A DNA stretch of 32,000 nucleotides from Candidatus Jordarchaeales archaeon (GCA_038889235.1 JAWAHN010000002.1:134356-166355), one strand, 5' to 3'; numbered from the stretch's first letter, positions 4,035 through 29,739 are shown. Translations and numbers: made by a program. Notes: a model not told the origin generated them from the sequence alone.

Positions 4035-4676
4035 TTGCTGGTTGCTGGGGTGGACGAGGCTGGAAGGGGGCCAGTAATAGGCCCCATGGTGGTGTCCGGT
4101 GTGCTCGTTGAGGAGTCGTCTATCGAGTCACTTACACGGATGGGTGTCACTGACTCTAAATGTCTCACCCCGTCTCAGAGGTCGAGGCTTTTCGGTCACA
4201 TAATTGAGGTCGCTAAGAAGGTCATTTCCTTAGAAGTTCCCCCAAGCGAAATAGACGACGCGGTCTGTTCAGTGGGGCTAAACGAGCTCGAAGCTTGCAA
4301 GATGGCAGAAATAGTGAACGAGTTGCAACCCGACGTAGCCTACCTTGACGCCGCAGATCCCTACCCTGAAAAGTTCTACGAGCGGGTCAAAAAATACCTT
4401 TCATGCAACGCTAGAATAATTGTCGAGCACAATGCTGACAAAAAATATGTCGTTGTAGGAGCCGCCTCCATCGTGGCCAAAGTTATCAGGGATTCTCGAA
4501 TGAATGAGCTCAAGGTTTATGGTGAGATTGGGTCAGGTTACCCTCAGGATCCGCGAACTATAGAATTCCTGAGGTGTTGGGTGAGAGAGAAGGGCTGCCT
4601 TCCTCCCTTCGCCAGGAAAACGTGGAAAACAGCGAGAAGAATACTAGAGGAAACCTTTCAGAAAAAGTTAATTTGA
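4035..4676 (+). CDS. rnhB: Ribonuclease HII
   Basis: AGVDEAGRGPVIGPMVV, DSK.L, AASIVAKV.RD, GSGYP.DP; AGGTGA SD before the TTG start. Confidence 0.97.
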   Translation: MLVAGVDEAGRGPVIGPMVVSGVLVEESSIESLTRMGVTDSKCLTPSQRSRLFGHIIEVAKKVISLEVPPSEIDDAVCSVGLNELEACKMAEIVNELQPDVAYLDAADPYPEKFYERVKKYLSCNARIIVEHNADKKYVVVGAASIVAKVIRDSRMNELKVYGEIGSGYPQDPRTIEFLRCWVREKGCLPPFARKTWKTARRILEETFQKKLI

Positions 4677-10220: not shown

Positions 10221-11474
10221 ATGGGTAAAACGCTTGCCGAAAAAATTCTAAGTCTCGCCTCTGGAACTGACGCCTACCAAGGAGACATAGTGGTAGCTAA
10301 CGTAGACTTTGCCATGGCGCAGGATGGCACAGCCCCCTTGGCGATTGAAGCCTTCAAGAGTATGGGGGTAGAAAAAGTCTGGGATCCCAGTAGGATAGCG
10401 CTCGTCATAGACCACAACGCCCCCAGTCCCAACGAAGGTGTCTCGAAGCTACATAAGCTGATGAGAGAGTGGGCTACAAGTCAAGGGGTAATCCTTTACG
10501 ACATAGGGGAAGGTGTCTGCCACCAAGTTATGGTGGAGCGTGGACACGTAAAACCTGGAAGAGTCGTCCTAGGAGCCGACAGCCACACATGCACTTACGG
10601 TGCGCTCGGCGCCTTGGCTACTGGTATAGGGTCAACGGAGATGGCTGCTGTCTTTGCAAGCGGCCAGCTCTGGCTGAGAGTCCCAGAAACGTTCCTTGTA
10701 ATTGTCGAGGGTAAGCTTCCCAACGGGGTCTACGCTAAGGACATTGTTTTGTCAGTCATTGGGAAAGTTGGAGCTGACGGGGCAACCTACATGGCCGTTG
10801 AGTATACGGGAAGTACCATTAAGGAACTCAGCCTGGACGGACGGTTAACTCTCTGCAACATGGCTGTAGAAATGGGTGGAAAAACGGGTCTAGTGGCCCC
10901 CGACGAGAAAGTGGTCTCCTTCCTAAAGGAGAGAGGGATAACAGGCGGATACGAGTTACTTGCAAGCGACGAGGATGCAGATTTTGCCGAAAAGCTAGAG
11001 CTCGACGCCGAGGACCTAGTGCCGGTCGTTGCATGTCCCCACTCTGTGGACAATGTTAAATCAGTAGAAGAAGTTGAAGGAACACCCGTTAGCCAAGTAT
11101 TCATAGGAACCTGCACTAACGGTAGAATAGAAGATCTAAGAATCGCTGCAAGAGTTATGAAAGGAAGGAAAGTCAGGGTGAGAACAATAATTGTGCCAGC
11201 TTCCAGAGAGGTTTACCTCAAAGCCTTGAGAGAAGGACTCATTGAGGCATTCGTAGAGGCAGGCGCTACCGTCTGCAACCCTGGATGCGGCCCCTGCGTC
11301 GGGACACACCAAGGGATACCGTCACCCGGCGACGTTGTCATCTCCACGGCTAATAGAAACTTTAAGGGGAGAATGGGTTGTGACGACGCCGAAATATACC
11401 TTGCCTCACCTCACACCGCTGCGCTGGCAGCGGTAACTGGAGAAATAAGAGACCCTAGAAGGGGAGACATATGA
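10221..11474 (+). CDS. leuC: 3-isopropylmalate dehydratase / homoaconitase family large subunit
   Basis: DHNAP, GVCHQV, GADSHTCTYGA, IGTCTNGR, CGPCVG, STANRNFKGRMG; intact. Confidence 0.95.
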   Translation: MGKTLAEKILSLASGTDAYQGDIVVANVDFAMAQDGTAPLAIEAFKSMGVEKVWDPSRIALVIDHNAPSPNEGVSKLHKLMREWATSQGVILYDIGEGVCHQVMVERGHVKPGRVVLGADSHTCTYGALGALATGIGSTEMAAVFASGQLWLRVPETFLVIVEGKLPNGVYAKDIVLSVIGKVGADGATYMAVEYTGSTIKELSLDGRLTLCNMAVEMGGKTGLVAPDEKVVSFLKERGITGGYELLASDEDADFAEKLELDAEDLVPVVACPHSVDNVKSVEEVEGTPVSQVFIGTCTNGRIEDLRIAARVMKGRKVRVRTIIVPASREVYLKALREGLIEAFVEAGATVCNPGCGPCVGTHQGIPSPGDVVISTANRNFKGRMGCDDAEIYLASPHTAALAAVTGEIRDPRRGDI

Positions 11475-12009
11475 TTAGGGGAAGGGTTTGGAAGTTTCCG
11501 GACAACGTTAACACAGACTATATTATACCTGGAATGTAGCCTGAAAAGTCAGGCTACCTGGAAAGTACAAGTTTAAGACGCTCGACATGGACGAACTGGC
11601 TAAACACGCTATGGAAGGCATAGACCCAAGCTTCTCGAAGAAAGTTAGAAAAGGCGACATAATCGTAGCTGGGAAAAACTTTGGTTGCGGCTCGAGCAGA
11701 GAGCAAGCTCCACTAGTCCTCAAACACGTGGGGATCTCCTTGATCATAGCGGAAAGCTTCGCCCGAATATTCTACCGCAACTCCTTTAACATAGGACTTC
11801 CCCTCCTCATATGCAAAGGGATAACCGAAGCCACTGACGAAGGCGACGAGCTAGAAGTAGATGTTAGCAGCGGTCGCATACGCAACCTGACAAAGGGCAC
11901 CGAGTTGTATGCAAACCCAATACCTGACTTCCTGATGGAGATTGTCAACTCTGGTGGTCTTTCCGAGTACTACAAGAAGCACGGGCGGTTCCCATGGCAA
12001 AAAAGGTAG
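11471..12009 (+). CDS. leuD: 3-isopropylmalate dehydratase / homoaconitase family small subunit, split by a 29-nt intron: join(11471..11534,11564..12009), 169 aa
   Basis: ATG overlaps the leuC stop (ATGA). Exon 1 reads [21 protein letters not shown] then ATG-TAG; the downstream frame reads [13 protein letters not shown]...[15 protein letters not shown]...FARIFYRN. Removing 29 nt joins them as IIPGKYKF. Confidence 0.93.
11535..11563 (+). other. Candidate pre-mRNA intron with strict bulge-helix-bulge (hBHBh') motif
   Basis: Outer helix UAC(11526-28)/GUA(11565-67); central helix CUGG(11529-32)/CUGG(11558-61); bulges AAU(11533-35) and AAA(11562-64); inner stem GUAGCCUGA/UCAGGCUAC with AAAG loop. 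Cutting after bulge nt 2 on each strand releases exactly 29 nt and restores the frame. Confidence 0.88.
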
Positions 12010-12992
12010 GCTACATAGAGGGCGACGGCATAGGACATGAAATAGTTCCAGTAACTATTGAGATACTCGAAGAGTTAGTCCCACAAATAGAGTTGATACC
12101 GATAGAAGCCGGGCTAAACTACATGAAGAAGACAGGGAAAAACGTACTCATAAGCGACGAGGCGTTAGAGCTTGCAGCAACATGTGACGCCATACTCAAG
12201 GGACCGACGGAAACGCCTCCCGGGCCTGGAAGTCCGAAAAGCGTAGTAGTCACGCTAAGACAAGCATTAGATCTTTACGCCAACGTACGCCCCTTCCAGT
12301 ACCCGGGAAAAATAGACGTCATAATAGTCAGAGAGAACACGGAAGATCTGTACAAGGGAATAGAGCATAGGTTGTCGTCCGACGTCGCCATCGGCGTACG
12401 AGTAATAACCCGAAAAGGATCCAAAAGAATAGCTGAATACGCCTACAAGATGGCGTCCCAATTCGGAAGGCGCAAAGTTACCATAGTCCACAAAGCAACA
12501 GTCATGAAAGAGACGTGTGGCCTCTTCAGGGAGACTTGTCTCGAAGTCGCATCCCAATATCCTTCAATTGAAACGGAAGAAATGCACGTCGACACTATAG
12601 CGATGAACTTAGTTCTTAACCCGGCGCGCTTCGACGTTATACTCACAACCAACATGTTCGGAGATATACTCTCCGACCTCTGTGCTGGCATAGTTGGAAG
12701 CATAGGGTTATGCCCGTCGGCAAATGTGGGAGATAAAAACGCCATGTTCGAAGCAATACACGGAAGCGCGCCGGACATAGCTGGAAAAGGCATAGCGAAC
12801 CCCGCGGGAATAATACTCGCAGCAGCACTCATGCTCGACTACCTAGGATACACGACCCAAGCAAAAAAGCTCAGAGACGCCACACTAAGCGTGGTAACCG
12901 AAAAAGTCAAAGTGACCCCCGACCTAGGCGGCAACGCCACGACAAGACAAATGGCGGAAGAAATACTTCGAAAAGCCAAGCAAGAAAGCTAA
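11994..12992 (+). CDS. leuB: Isocitrate/isopropylmalate (beta-decarboxylating) dehydrogenase family, LeuB/AksF-like
   Basis: [62 protein letters not shown]. Confidence 0.9.
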
Positions 12993-13129
12993 CGAAAGCA
13001 TACAGCTACAAAATCAATGACCGCCAAAACATACAACCACCCCACAGAAAGACAAAGACCTACTCGTGAAGCAACAAAAAATACCCGTCAAACAACTCCC
13101 AAATTTCAAGCAACTCTATTTTTCAAGCT

Positions 13130-13473
13130 CTACAGCCTTGCAGCAGTCTTAACAAGGTTCACGGCGTTTCCAAGCCTTATAAGCACGTTTCTAATAGCTT
13201 CAAGAAGAGAAGCACCTCCTTCTTCAACAACAAGTGAAGTGCAGAAACAGTTCTAAAAACTTTACAGAGACACTGTCCTTCATTACCATTAAAGTGAAAT
13301 CTAGCTACATAGGTGCCTTTTTCAACAAGCTCTTCCATAGTGTAGAGCATAGGTAAACCTCTGAGGACCCCGCCAGGCAGCCTCATATACTCGTTAGTTA
13401 CACTTCTTTTATACCTGAAGACCTTATAGATCCCTTTGTGCAAGCTTCCTTTTATTCTCCCCGAGTAAGTCAC
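13130..13473 (-). pseudogene. Possible degraded or frameshifted hypothetical gene
   Basis: 98-aa ORF after a GGAGGTAGGTG SD-like tract; a second frame (SLVVEEGGASLLEAIRNVLIRLGNAVNLVKTAARL-stop 13130) looks more protein-like near the end. No family recognised. Confidence 0.25.
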
Positions 13474-13860
13474 CTACCTCCCTAAAACCTCAACAGCCAT
13501 CTTACTTTTGCCCCTAATCCCCGTCCAACCCTAGCCAGCAACAAAGGAACAACACAAAACCCGACACGCCACCTTCCTCAACCACCATCTAAAACTAGCA
13601 AGACCCCCTTAACAAAGCCACCCTTACACAGATGCAAACATTACCTAACAACCTCCCAGCCCCTCTCCTACAATAATCCTCTAAATACACTCCTTTCTCT
13701 AACAACTCTCTTTCTCCTTCAGCTTGCCGCCCCCCTCCCCGGCACAACAACCACTCCACACTAATATTCTTAAATCCCCAATTTCGCATGAAAATTCTCT
13801 CCCGCAGCAAACCTACAAATAAGCTCAAAAATAGTATACACGGTCACAGCTTTGAAACGA

Positions 13861-13895
13861 AAATTTACGTAAAAAATAATTTAATTAATAGATAA
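13861..13895 (-). terminator. AT-rich, T-run terminator-like tract downstream of tRNA-Gly
   Basis: Minus strand after CCA reads ttatctattaattaaattattttttacgtaaattt; oligo-T tracts are typical archaeal terminators. Confidence 0.45.
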
Positions 13896-13918
13896 TGGTG
13901 CGGTCGCCGGGATTTGAA

Positions 13919-13938
13919 TTCCCGGACTTTGTGCGTCT
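13919..13938 (-). other. tRNA intron 2, 20 nt, position 53/54, strict BHB
   Basis: GA-[CCCG]-[GG|A]-GAC-GCACAAA-GUC-[CGGG]-[AA|U]-UC; removal rebuilds CCGGG-UUCAAAU-CCCGG. Confidence 0.9.
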
Positions 13939-13961
13939 CCCGGGTCGCAGGCTTGGAGGGC

Positions 13962-13977
13962 TTCCGCCCGTTTTGGT
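13962..13977 (-). other. tRNA intron 1, 16 nt, position 29/30, relaxed BHB
   Basis: GG-[ACGU]-[AG|A]-CC-AAAAC-GG-[GCGG]-[AA|G]-CC; central helix has one A.G mismatch; removal rebuilds the 5-bp anticodon stem. Confidence 0.75.
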
Positions 13978-14047
13978 CTACGTCCTGGTCCAGGCTAGAC
14001 GACGACCGCTCATATTAGATTTTTCAGCTTATGCTTTTATTTTTTAC

Positions 14048-15286
14048 TCAGAAGAGTATGGCTTGTCTTTCTAGGACTAGTTTTGTTATGTTAGTGACTT
14101 TTGCTATTTCTTCTTTTGCTATCTCTCTAGCTTCGTTTTGGATGTTGTTCCATGAGGCTGTTGGGTCCACTAGTAGCTGTATGCTGGCTATTGCAGGGTC
14201 GTCTATTCTTCTTCCTATTTGTCCCAGTATGTATACATATGCTTCTTTTACTTCATCTATTTCTACCGCTATTCTATTTGCGATGGAGCCTGCTAGGACG
14301 TTGTATATTTTCCCTATGTGGCTGTAGGGGTTTTTTCCTGCTGTTGCTTCTATACTCATTGGTCTGTTAGGTGTTATTAGTCCGTTACACCTGTTTCCTC
14401 TTCCGACTTGTCCGTCGTCTCCGCTCTCGGCGGAGGTTCCCGTTAGTGTAAGGTAGTATATTCCTTTTTCGTAGTTGTCTCCGACGTTTACTTTTACTTC
14501 TATTTCTTTGCTCGTGTGTTTTGAGGCTAGGTTGGCTAGTTCTGTTGCTATCTGTTCTTTGACGTTTATGTAGTGGTCTTTGTCTGGTGTGAGCGGGGCT
14601 ATTATTGCTGCGGCTACTGTTAGCGTTATTTTTTCTCTGTCTCTAACTCCCATTACTTTTATGTCTTCTCCGACCTCTGGAAGTTTTTCTTTGAGCTCTT
14701 TGGAGTTAAGGTATTTTTCGGCTTCTAGTACTATTCTCTCGGTTTCCGTCAGAGGCGCGAAGCCGACTCCTATGCTTGTATCGTTTGATAGTGGTGCTTG
14801 CTTTTTCCCCTCTTCGAATATTCGGCGTAGGTCTGCTGATCCTGGACGTAGTAGCGCTTTGACAACTAGGTGTTTTTCTACGTCGAGGAATCGTAGGATC
14901 CTCTTGAACTCCTCTTTAATGCTTCCAACCGCTATTTCTTCTGCTGGGATTTTCTTTACTTTTTTCTCTGTGGCGACTTCGGTTGTGGCTCTTCCTGCGA
15001 GGATGAATGTTATTGGCTCGATTATTTCTCCTCCCCCGAACGTCACGTTTGCTCTCCCACCTACTAATATCGCCTTGTCTACGTTGTGGTGTAGTATTTC
15101 TCCAAAGTGTTTCTGGTAGTATTTCGAGAGGCTCACGCTCGCGGCTTCGGCGGCGTGATCGCAAAGGCTGTCGGGGTGCCCAATCCCTTTCCTCTCGACC
15201 ACTTCAACCTCCAGACTTTCCACTGGTTGGCTATACAACCTGCTAACTCTAATGTTCAATGCGCTTCCCCCATCCGTCTCTCGCAT
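14048..15286 (-). CDS. metK: Archaeal-type S-adenosylmethionine synthetase
   Basis: [84 protein letters not shown]; start may be the TTG at 15259. Confidence 0.95.
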
Positions 15287-15502: not shown

Positions 15503-16156
15503 ATGCGTTACAAGTGGCTTTTCGTGGCGCTACTGGTGGCCTTTTTGACGGCGCCTTTGTTTTTAAGTTTCTTCTCTATTCCGGTTCAAGCTCAGCCTGT
15601 GAAGCATACTTTCACGTTTCTTAACCCTGATAACTGCGGTGTGAACTTTAACGTCACTGTGGATACTAGTATCCTGATTGACGGGTTGATAGGAAGTTGG
15701 TCGATTATGGTGACTGCTTCGCCCATTACGCCGAATGTAGTGAATCTCACATTGATGGGGACGGTTAATGGAAGCATTGTCTCAAGGGGGTTCCTTGTAC
15801 CGGCGCGGGACGCTTTCTCGTCGGATAGTGTTTTCAAGAGGTTTTCTCCTTCCTCCTACATCATTTACATCTCGGAGCCATTAATTGTTTGGCAAGATTC
15901 AGCGGGCTTTCCCGTAGCTTTCTCGTTTGACCTTATTATAACCATTAAGTACAGTGATGGAGGGGAGAAAAGTGTCCATCTTAAGTCGGGTGAAAGCGTG
16001 ATTGCTTTCATCATGCCTAATCCAGGAAAGTTGCCTCCTGAGGCCACTAAGCTCATGGCTGTCTCTTATCTAGGTTCTATCCTGCTTCCGCTGAGTGTTT
16101 TTTTGTTAAACAAGCTGATTAAGAGAGGTTTTAACAGGAGGGTGTTGTCGAGTTGA
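15503..16156 (+). CDS. Hypothetical membrane-anchored protein (N-terminal signal/TM, beta-rich domain, C-terminal TM)
   Basis: MRYKWLFVALLVAFLTAPLFLSFF..VQA signal-like start after GGAGG; hydrophobic C-terminal segment followed by basic residues. Confidence 0.65.
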   Translation: MRYKWLFVALLVAFLTAPLFLSFFSIPVQAQPVKHTFTFLNPDNCGVNFNVTVDTSILIDGLIGSWSIMVTASPITPNVVNLTLMGTVNGSIVSRGFLVPARDAFSSDSVFKRFSPSSYIIYISEPLIVWQDSAGFPVAFSFDLIITIKYSDGGEKSVHLKSGESVIAFIMPNPGKLPPEATKLMAVSYLGSILLPLSVFLLNKLIKRGFNRRVLSS

Positions 16157-16842: not shown

Positions 16843-17759
16843 GCGCTATATCGATACGTGGGCTGAGGAAGGTTTTCGGGAGCTTTGTAGCGCTGGACGG
16901 CGTTGACCTAGAGGTCCCCGAAGGTGTTTGCTTCGGGCTTCTAGGTCCTAACGGGGCGGGTAAAACGACGACGATAAAAATAATCCTCGGTTTGTTAGAG
17001 CCCAGCGGGGGCGAAGCTAGGGTTTTTGGTGAAAGGGCCGGAAGTTATGACGTGAGACGAAGGATAGGGTACCTCCCCGAGAGGATAGAATACCACAACC
17101 ACGTTTTATGCATAGACTTCCTGAAGTACGTGGGCATTTTGAATCACATGAGGCCGCTTGCCGCTGAGAGGGCTGCGAGGGAGATTCTTGCATGGGTTGG
17201 TCTTGAGGGGTGGGAGGAGCAGCCTATAGGAACGCTGAGTGCCGGTATGAAGCAGAGACTTGGCTTAGCTCAGGCGTTGATGGGGGATCCAGACCTTTTG
17301 ATACTTGACGAGCCGACGGTTAACTTGGACCCTATTGGAAGAAAGGAAATTCTCGACAAGGTGAGGGAGCTTGTCAAGGACGGGAAGACCGTCCTACTGT
17401 CGAGCCACATTCTTTCGGAAGTTGAAATGGTGTGTGACTATGTCGGGATAATCTACAGGGGGCGGACGCTTAGGCAGGGAAAGTTGGAGGAGGTCGTCCA
17501 AGAGATAGTTCACGGTAGGTCTGGAAAATACGAGCTCGTGGTAGATAAGACCGACGAGGTTCTCTCCCTCCTAAGGGAGAAGGGGGTTGAGGCGGCGGTG
17601 GAAGGCGGGCGAATAATAATTTCCTCTTCGAACATGGATTTCGTTGGAAGGATTATCCCGAAAGTTTTAGCTGAGGCGAATGTGTGCCTAACGAAGTTTG
17701 CCCCGATAGGCGGGGCGCTGCAAGAGGTATTCCTCCAGCTTGTTTCAGAAAACGTTTAA
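16839..17759 (+). CDS. ABC transporter ATP-binding protein (ABC-2/exporter type)
   Basis: Walker A GPNGAGKTT, signature LSAGMKQR, Walker B LLILDEP, H-loop SSHIL. Confidence 0.95.
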   Translation: MSAISIRGLRKVFGSFVALDGVDLEVPEGVCFGLLGPNGAGKTTTIKIILGLLEPSGGEARVFGERAGSYDVRRRIGYLPERIEYHNHVLCIDFLKYVGILNHMRPLAAERAAREILAWVGLEGWEEQPIGTLSAGMKQRLGLAQALMGDPDLLILDEPTVNLDPIGRKEILDKVRELVKDGKTVLLSSHILSEVEMVCDYVGIIYRGRTLRQGKLEEVVQEIVHGRSGKYELVVDKTDEVLSLLREKGVEAAVEGGRIIISSSNMDFVGRIIPKVLAEANVCLTKFAPIGGALQEVFLQLVSENV

Positions 17760-28620: not shown

Positions 28621-29739
28621 TTACAGCAGCCTAGCGACAAACTCGGAAATGTCGCAGACCACTATCCTGTTCTCCGACAAGCTTTCGAGCTGGCTCTTAC
28701 AGAAAGGACATGCTGTAACTAAAACCTCCGCTCCAGTAGCTACAGCTTCCTTAACCCTTTCTGTGCCTATTTTGCGAGAAAGTTCTGGAAAGTTCACGTA
28801 GAGAACTCCGCCACGACCGCAACACTTTGCGTTTTTCCTGTTCCACTCCATTTCCAAAAGGCGGACTCCCGGAATACTGCTTAAAACACTTCTAGGCTCT
28901 TCATAAACGTGCATTCTTCTCCCAAGGTGGCATGGATCGTGATACGTTACGCTAACACTCTTCCCCAGGTCTTTTAACTCAATTTTCCCCTCACTAATAG
29001 CCCCCCACAAATACTGGCTTAAGTGTAAAACTTCGACGTTAAGTGGGAACCCAAGTTTTGGATACTCGCGGGAAAGTGCCATATAACAGCCAGCACAAGA
29101 GGTGACAACGACTTCGCAACCACTTTTCTCCACCTCTCTCCTGTTATGATCAGCGTGCTCCATGGCTAGCTTCTTATGTCCCGCTGAGAGGAGCGGTACT
29201 CCACAACACCACTCGTCCCCAATCAACTTGAAACCACCCTCAACTAGCTCAAGTATCTTCGTCGTAGCTCTCGCTATCTCCGGCTGCCTATACGCGGCCG
29301 TGCAGCCTACAAAGTAAGCCACTCTCCCCTTACCACTCTTTTTTCCACTTAGCACGTTGAACCTTTTTGCATGTGCCTCTCCATAAGGGTTCTTTTCACT
29401 CTCCACCTTCCTACTAAGTTCAATAGTTGCCTCAGGGGCGGCGCCCTCCTCGAAGATCCTTGCTCTCACTTCTTTAACTATTTCTGGAACGTCAATGCTA
29501 GGCAAGCACCATTCCTTGCAAAGCCCACAAGTGGCGCACTGGTACATGATGTCCACCACTCTACCTTTAAGCTCAACTTTTCCGTTGCGCAGGTAGTATG
29601 CTGTAAAGGATTTCCCGTACGGAGCCACACTTTCAAGCTTAAGCTGGTTCGCTACGATGCAAACAAAACGACACATTTTCATGCATTCCACTCCGCACAT
29701 AACCACAGGATCTGCGCTCACCAAGACAAACCCTCCCAA
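28621..29739 (-). CDS. (Fe-S)-binding oxidoreductase subunit, GlpC/HdrD-like (CCG domains)
   Basis: C..C.KMCRFVC, CATCGLCKEWC, YFVGC, WCCG.P, SCAGC, YHDPCHLGR, CCG.GG, TACPFC. Confidence 0.88.
   Translation of the reverse strand: MGGFVLVSADPVVMCGVECMKMCRFVCIVANQLKLESVAPYGKSFTAYYLRNGKVELKGRVVDIMYQCATCGLCKEWCLPSIDVPEIVKEVRARIFEEGAAPEATIELSRKVESEKNPYGEAHAKRFNVLSGKKSGKGRVAYFVGCTAAYRQPEIARATTKILELVEGGFKLIGDEWCCGVPLLSAGHKKLAMEHADHNRREVEKSGCEVVVTSCAGCYMALSREYPKLGFPLNVEVLHLSQYLWGAISEGKIELKDLGKSVSVTYHDPCHLGRRMHVYEEPRSVLSSIPGVRLLEMEWNRKNAKCCGRGGVLYVNFPELSRKIGTERVKEAVATGAEVLVTACPFCKSQLESLSENRIVVCDISEFVARLL

Follow-up and report, generated by a model that had tools for sequence, protein, structure and literature searches.

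A tRNA-type bulge-helix-bulge intron interrupts leuD in a Jordarchaeia (Asgard) archaeon and is very probably removed by the tRNA-splicing enzymes

Introns that are excised by an endonuclease from inside archaeal coding sequences are a textbook rarity. Here we describe one in a 32,000-nucleotide stretch of DNA from the hot-spring organism Candidatus Jordarchaeales archaeon (GCA_038889235.1, JAWAHN010000002.1:134356-166355; G000:C2:134356-166355 in our numbering), hereafter the window, which belongs to a 2.14 Mb genome in 8 contigs (C1, C2, and so on) that is 95% complete. The element in question is a segment of 29 nucleotides (nt) at 11535-11563 that interrupts leuD, the second gene of a leuC-leuD-leuB locus. 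We have good confidence that this segment is a genuine archaeal bulge-helix-bulge (BHB) intron that is removed by the tRNA-splicing enzymes, and its removal is likely constitutive.

Two archaeal systems come closest to this locus. The cbf5 pre-mRNA of Crenarchaeota carries a BHB intron (Watanabe et al., 2002; PMC2738675), which the endonuclease and ligase of tRNA splicing remove (PMC2738675); like the leuD insert, it is short, lies inside the coding sequence (CDS), leaves the reading frame broken when unspliced, and is patchily distributed among close relatives. In the literature up to 2020, cbf5 stood as the sole case within a coding sequence, alongside one case in a 5' untranslated region (5' UTR) in Haloferax (PMC7714728). 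In the latter case, HVO_1309 of Haloferax volcanii, the mRNA is a substrate of the endonuclease EndA, and its expression drops when endA is repressed (Schwarz et al., 2020; PMC7714728), a demonstration that the output of an mRNA can hinge on splicing capacity. The HVO_1309 intron lies in the untranslated leader and was demonstrated by circular RNA sequencing (circRNA-seq) and in vitro cleavage, whereas the leuD intron lies in the reading frame and is known from sequence and one RNA contig. Our literature search found no report of BHB introns in Asgard protein genes or in leuD, nor a further CDS case after 2020. Mechanistically, the leuD intron is a pre-mRNA BHB intron of the cbf5 type; what is new is the lineage and the scale (many genes, and a micro-exon). 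Unlike cbf5, leuD is a gene of a metabolic operon, it resides in an Asgard archaeon (Jordarchaeia), and it shares its genome with many other interrupted protein genes.

The leuD start codon overlaps the TGA stop codon of leuC at 11471 (ATGA). Read from this start, the unspliced frame ends at a TAG (11537-11539) two codons past a conserved Gly, exactly where an initial annotation, made from the sequence alone, had noted it, and the unspliced mRNA codes only for a 22-residue peptide. The rest of leuD lies in frame +2, which stays open to 12009. When exon 2 is read from an internal Met, it matches positions 26-156 of the 157 positions of the NCBIfam model LEUD_arch, the N-terminal part of the model being unmatched because exon 1 is left out. 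Removal of the 29 nt joins both frames, giving a spliced CDS of 510 nt (169 amino acids, aa), and the junction is in frame and agrees with intron-less orthologues. Because the unspliced reading meets a stop after two codons, functional LeuD depends on removal of the intron, a dependence that had likewise been proposed.

The insert has the architecture of a tRNA-type intron. In the complete hBHBh' motif (a BHB with an outer and an inner helix; Table 1), the outer helix (11526-8/11565-7) comprises 3 base pairs (bp), the central helix (11529-32/11558-61) is paired at four of four positions, two of them G-U, and the inner hairpin (11536-44/11549-57) comprises 9 bp. The bulges occupy 11533-5 and 11562-4, and each cut falls after the second bulge base. 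Starting with the last base of bulge 1, the intron runs through the hairpin and the central helix's 3' strand to the second base of bulge 2. Folding of the 50-nt site gives a minimum-energy structure (z = -2.85) that includes the central helix, bulge 1, and the hairpin. By our own arithmetic, a motif of minimal size (4+3+3 pairs) would arise by chance at about 5.5e-5 per site pair and topology, and at a value about 350-fold lower with the 9-bp inner helix. Since only about nine equivalent placements of a 29-nt cut yield the same in-frame product, a chance match to a BHB is very unlikely. The initial annotation had placed three BHB introns in this region, one in leuD and two at non-canonical positions of a tRNA-Gly gene, and all three held up when their geometry and junctions were checked. 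A BLAST search of the genome with the leuD intron found no second copy; at that sensitivity, it is not a repeated element.

The end of exon 1 (11526-11534) and the end of the intron (11555-11563) carry the same 9-nt direct repeat, TACCTGGAA, identical at 9/9 positions. The locus resembles a bypass site, in that the copies of the repeat would match as sites of take-off and landing and a hairpin lies between them, and one could suppose that ribosomes hop over the 29 bases, as in T4 gene 60, or shift frame, with no splicing of the RNA. We regard such translational recoding as barely credible, given that an RNA-derived contig is itself without the 29 bases (see below), that the structure matches a BHB exactly, with a cut site in each bulge, and that tRNA genes, in which translation plays no part, carry identical motifs. 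Moreover, the orthologous leuD introns of loci L001 and L002 have no extended repeat.

Four RNA runs (X1-X4) were mapped on 11000-14100; X1 is a metatranscriptome in the form of Logan contigs, and X2-X4 are raw-read metatranscriptomes. Record 3 of X1 is a 390-nt contig that aligns on 11377-11795 with 8 mismatches (98% identical) and omits exactly 29 bases (depth 6.83 of 6.83). The tool placed the gap at 11526; the 9-nt repeat TACCTGGAA makes this placement equivalent to a deletion of the segment between the predicted cuts. Given that a tRNA-type intron breaks the gene and that an RNA-derived contig is without those 29 bases, the tRNA-splicing enzymes very probably splice the leuD mRNA, and several other mRNAs considered below.

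Four points weigh against splicing of leuD. First, the RNA support is one assembled contig, from a related strain (~2% different) and from an RNA library that possibly contains DNA. Second, record 6 of X1 (13893-14100), which covers the 3' end of an S-adenosylmethionine (SAM) synthetase gene and the whole tRNA-Gly gene, keeps both tRNA-Gly introns; it is either an unspliced read-through precursor or DNA carried over into the library. If it is DNA, the lack of an insert-bearing leuD contig at similar depth lends further weak support to leuD splicing. Third, X2 and X3 have no reads on 11000-14100, and X4 has nine partial reads from another organism, so that these runs are uninformative on expression. 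Fourth, the outer helix of the leuD motif in the window is only 3 bp long and is absent from the computed minimum-energy fold.

Orthologous genes provide independent views of the same site. Inserts of 23, 25, 27, 27, 27, 29, 29, and 30 nt occupy the identical leuD codon site in eight distinct orthologous sequences. Of the helix cells in these eight introns, 78/80 are paired (central helix 31/32, outer helix 23/24, first three inner pairs 24/24), with two-sided changes at inner pair 2 and inner pair 3 (U-A to G-C; A-U to G-C or U-G). The hairpin interior, the loop, and the length vary freely, and the BHB geometry alone is kept; for two of the orthologues, L002 and L099, the computed minimum-energy structure comprises the entire hBHBh'. 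In species-representative genomes of two GTDB families of one order, every genome of the window's family has the insert (f1; 5/5, from two genera), and the insert length is 0 nt in 6/6 genomes of the sister family (f2), whose intron-less genes agree with the spliced LeuD of the window. In a collection of 5.8 billion proteins, the ten nearest clusters to exon 2 (83-96% identity) are all called as truncated open reading frames (ORFs) of 131-151 aa, and full-length LeuD proteins (166-175 aa) occur only at 72% identity or below. Because the orthologues keep both the site and the BHB geometry, the sister family is insert-free, and the nearest entries are truncated, the comparison indicates that the break is old, inherited, under selection for splice geometry, and systematically mis-annotated.

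These data also bear on the view that the insert has inactivated leuD or is a strain polymorphism, with the RNA contig stemming from a strain whose DNA never had it. Such an account can draw on the contig coming from a related but not identical strain, on DNA contamination of RNA libraries, on the 9-nt direct repeat flanking the insert in the manner of a target-site duplication, and on an intact LeuD paralogue (C1:290206-290709) that could compensate for the loss. We nevertheless consider it highly improbable. At least ten clusters, all of which carry the break, keep an exon 2 that is 83-96% conserved and free of other lesions, and the BHB of the insert is maintained by compensatory changes among the five family members; a pseudogene would not keep splice geometry. 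In addition, the nearest DNA relatives (96% protein identity) carry the insert, and an insert-free DNA in the X1 strain is disfavored because every DNA relative down to 83% protein identity has it.

A spliced leuD mRNA calls for a splicing endonuclease, and the genome encodes a plausible one. There are two EndA paralogues, an alpha subunit of 196 aa (L081:1192-1779) and a beta subunit of 195 aa (L082:1477-2061, which is G000:C3:444285-444869, minus strand). The Tyr/His/Lys triad is found in the alpha subunit, whose alignment to the catalytic subunit of Aeropyrum pernix EndA (3P1Z_B, E 4e-47) is gap-free; the alpha subunit also carries the Crenarchaea-specific loop (...YGQPLDVEKPRGADFEGP...), in which its Lys is aligned to K44 of 3P1Z_B. 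In the beta subunit, Val replaces the catalytic His (alignment to 1A79). The enzyme is thus predicted to be of the (alpha-beta)2 kind, and the (alpha-beta)2 and epsilon2 forms of EndA are the only types that cleave non-canonical introns (PMC5829648). This classification speaks against the possibility, raised with the initial annotation, that the EndA of this genome cannot process such substrates. The closest structural counterpart is the (alpha-beta)2 EndA of A. pernix (PDB 3P1Z/3AJV), whose catalytic subunit aligns end to end and shares the loop and its Lys, and whose second subunit is likewise without the catalytic His. The two enzymes differ in that the Jordarchaeal second subunit is nearer to the chains of Methanocaldococcus jannaschii (alpha4, E 8e-30) and Methanopyrus kandleri (E 1e-30), its best matches, than to crenarchaeal EndA chains; a search with it returned no crenarchaeal beta chain. 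Because of this closer relation, the Asgard beta subunit may have arisen independently. RtcB (full-length match) and archease are each present in one copy. One broad-specificity splicing apparatus serving both tRNAs and mRNAs, as had been proposed from the window, is supported by this gene complement.

The initial annotation had further anticipated that more micro-introns would exist in coding sequences, including in-frame ones, and a gene-by-gene check found them. In a Pfam search of the genome, elongation factor EF-2 is split into two frames at position 80/81 of the GTP_EFTU model by a 29-nt insert (C1:445935-445963, minus strand); the BHB central helix is paired 4/4, and removal restores IDTPGHV/DFTGHV. 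The gene for aIF5B has a 29-nt insert (C1:806573-806601), whose removal restores GHIDHGK/TSLLD. In aIF2-gamma (C1:849900-849990, minus strand), we recognized by eye two hairpin inserts around a 14-nt micro-exon (gttgatcatggcaa, coding for VDHGK) in the P-loop region. The aIF5B intron, at DHGK|T, is at a site homologous to that of aIF2-gamma. A GlcF/HdrD-like iron-sulfur (Fe-S) protein is interrupted by an in-frame insert of 30 nt with a TAA stop (C1:565583-565612, minus strand; central helix 4/4, inner 7, outer 5), which splits the CxxCxxCxxxCP motif, and removal restores CGY/CVEECP. An ORF caller would give two genes or a truncated one at this locus. Finally, a second LeuC/HacA paralogue (C2:317547-318780, minus strand), 53% identical to the LeuC of the window, is frame-broken after VDLVMVHEMLG by a BHB-like insert of 20 nt (C2:318669-318688; central helix 4/4, outer 3); its partner small subunit, the LeuD paralogue mentioned above, is intact and unlinked. 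Because EF-2, aIF5B, aIF2-gamma, and the Fe-S protein carry such introns, the phenomenon is not pathway-specific.

The genome scan for hBHBh' motifs in coding sequences that had been suggested gave a divided outcome: the introns above came from the gene-by-gene check, whereas a blind genome-wide scan combining BHB geometry with ORF merging returned about 1600 loci, no excess over four decoy geometries, and is too noisy for counting CDS introns. Candidates from the scan within the window (29655-29694, 4106-4202, 17671-17753, 16100-16137, and others) were rejected, the flanking ORFs being complete Pfam domains or separate genes; excision of 29655-29694 would remove a Cys-rich motif. A Mre11/Rad50-like junction at C1:222751-222794 proved by eye to be an ordinary gene boundary. 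Direct repeats between the end of exon 1 and the end of the intron also occur elsewhere (Fe-S gene 7/8, EF-2 and aIF5B 5/8; about 2/8 expected by chance), and the central helices of the leuD, EF-2, aIF5B, and Fe-S introns use near-palindromic tetramers (CCGG, ACGT, GGCC). Repeats and palindromes together may be the footprint of intron gain by local duplication or by insertion at palindromes.

In the mechanism that we propose, the leuC-leuD-leuB transcript, presumably a single one, would fold locally into hBHBh', and the housekeeping EndA, putatively of the (alpha-beta)2 type, would cut after the second base of each 3-nt bulge. RtcB with archease would then ligate the exons and probably circularize the intron, and the spliced mRNA would yield a normal LeuD/HacB-type small subunit of 169 aa. 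The same enzymes would process both tRNA-Gly introns and the micro-introns of the other protein genes. We infer that the leuD mRNA most likely has to be spliced in order to mature and is spliced constitutively, and that the intron is probably no dedicated means of regulation. The most economical reading of the distribution is that BHB introns spread neutrally or selfishly and are tolerated by an efficient EndA of broad specificity.

The initial annotation had gone further and suggested a post-transcriptional switch, in which the spliced fraction of leuD follows tRNA-splicing capacity or stress and gates LeuD output, and with it leucine or 2-oxoacid chain-elongation flux, in the manner of XBP1/HAC1. 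The strict dependence of LeuD on splicing, retention of the intron in every genome of the family, the interruption of the second LeuC/HacA paralogue as well, and the precedent of the HVO_1309 5' UTR intron, where endA knock-down lowers expression (PMC7714728), would all suit such a switch. However, a sensor sequence is missing: nothing is conserved beyond the BHB, and the intron interiors differ in sequence and length. Like introns sit in unrelated housekeeping genes (EF-2, aIF5B, aIF2-gamma) and in the Fe-S protein gene, the spliced form alone was assembled from RNA, and an intact LeuD paralogue is present. No match to Ribonuc_2-5A (PF06479), the RNase domain of IRE1, was found in the genome, nor in any control genome, a weak negative with no positive control. 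We therefore consider a regulatory switch at leuD quite unlikely.

The analogy with XBP1/HAC1 (IRE1 with RtcB/Trl1) holds in part. Both systems are spliceosome-independent, with a very short intron (26 nt in XBP1) whose removal changes the frame, and the ligase is RtcB in animals. The analogy fails at the endonuclease and its sites: in XBP1, the stress sensor IRE1 makes its cuts within two hairpin loops of 7 nt, whereas the leuD sites lie in the 3-nt bulges of a BHB, the substrate of EndA. Moreover, unspliced XBP1 encodes a functional protein, unspliced leuD only its short peptide, and regulation has been demonstrated for XBP1.

Spliceosome-free mRNA splicing appears to be routine in a lineage near the eukaryotic stem, which raises the question of whether dependence on EndA and RtcB has regulatory consequences. 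Gene callers truncate intron-bearing genes, as in all ten of the nearest LeuD entries, and metabolic reconstructions of these lineages may therefore misjudge pathways. A broader proposition is that the tRNA-splicing machinery of Jordarchaeia forms a genome-wide layer of mRNA maturation, in which dozens of genes need EndA and RtcB and splicing capacity sets a global post-transcriptional checkpoint. We consider this unlikely. If it were true, splicing would be a precondition for protein from dozens of genes, translation factors and both LeuCD-type dehydratases among them; splicing capacity would amount to RtcB/archease activity in competition with about 100 tRNA introns, acting as a checkpoint on growth-related and biosynthetic genes. 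It would also amount to a prokaryotic counterpart, working without a spliceosome, of gene expression that depends on introns, and this among the closest relatives of eukaryotes.

Table 1. Features of the leuC-leuD-leuB locus and the tRNA-Gly gene (positions in the window).
Feature	Position	Strand	Description
leuC/hacA-family large subunit	10221..11474	+	417 aa, intact ORF; Pfam Aconitase E 3e-104; NCBIfam hacA_fam/IPMI_arch, at subfamily level only
leuD exon 1	11471..11534	+	64 nt, ends with first base of Lys codon; N-terminus as in intron-less orthologues L003-L005 and L109-L114
leuD BHB intron (very probable)	11535..11563	+	29 nt; motif geometry; 29 bases absent from RNA-derived contig (X1 record 3)
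Whole hBHBh' motif	11526..11567	+	Outer helix UAC/GUA, central helix CUGG/CUGG, bulges AAU and AAA
leuD exon 2	11564..12009	+	446 nt with stop; Pfam Aconitase_C
Isopropylmalate/homoisocitrate dehydrogenase family gene (leuB-like)	11994..12992	+	ORF with Pfam/NCBIfam matches; overlaps leuD end by 16 nt
tRNA-Gly(UCC)	13897..14009	-	CCA encoded; exons 14009-13978, 13961-13939, 13918-13897
tRNA intron 1	13962..13977	-	16 nt, position 29/30 (anticodon stem); relaxed BHB: central 3/4, inner 2, outer 2
tRNA intron 2	13919..13938	-	20 nt, position 53/54 (T arm); BHB: central 4/4, inner 3, outer 2

The closest public leuC loci are those of Candidatus Jordarchaeia metagenome-assembled genomes (MAGs; 89% identity), of an unclassified "Thermoproteota" MAG (84%), and of Freyarchaeota/Jordarchaeia (73-74%), which places the organism among the Jordarchaeia of the Asgard archaea. 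For LeuC, LeuD, and LeuB, the NCBIfam cut-offs are passed by subfamily models only, which do not separate isopropylmalate isomerase from homoaconitase and fit a role in leucine synthesis as well as one in 2-oxoacid elongation; the same holds for the paralogous set. The ~900 bases between leuB and the tRNA gene (12993-13896) contain no convincing gene; the plus strand is C/A-rich, and the only ORF is one of 98 aa on the minus strand (13177-13473).

Neither ARAGORN nor Rfam detected a tRNA in the intact window; after stepwise deletion of both introns, ARAGORN reports tRNA-Gly(UCC) with a score of 115.6. In the orthologous tRNA of L001, both introns are at the same sites with another intron sequence, and in that of L002 the introns are at other sites. 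Over the whole genome, ARAGORN found 7 tRNAs without an intron search (several with dubious anticodons) and 14 with a one-intron model, and standard annotation would miss most tRNAs of this nearly complete genome. These low counts agree with published reports that almost every tRNA gene in these lineages is interrupted, often repeatedly, with about two interruptions per tRNA gene in this family (PMC11291895; bioRxiv 10.64898/2026.10.13.758758). The introns of tRNA-Gly thus resemble the non-canonical and multiple tRNA introns of Thermoproteales, Jordarchaeia, Freyarchaeia, and Atabeyarchaeia (Sugahara 2008; PMC11291895; bioRxiv 10.64898/2026.10.13.758758). Those papers cover tRNA genes only, and the term "mRNA" is absent from the last of them (bioRxiv 10.64898/2026.10.13.758758). 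The anticodon loop of tRNA-Gly (13950-13956, minus strand) reads CCUCCAA, with C at position 33 in place of the near-universal U, and the stretch GCCCTCCAAGCCTG of the anticodon loop region is invariant in the orthologous tRNA of L001 and L002.

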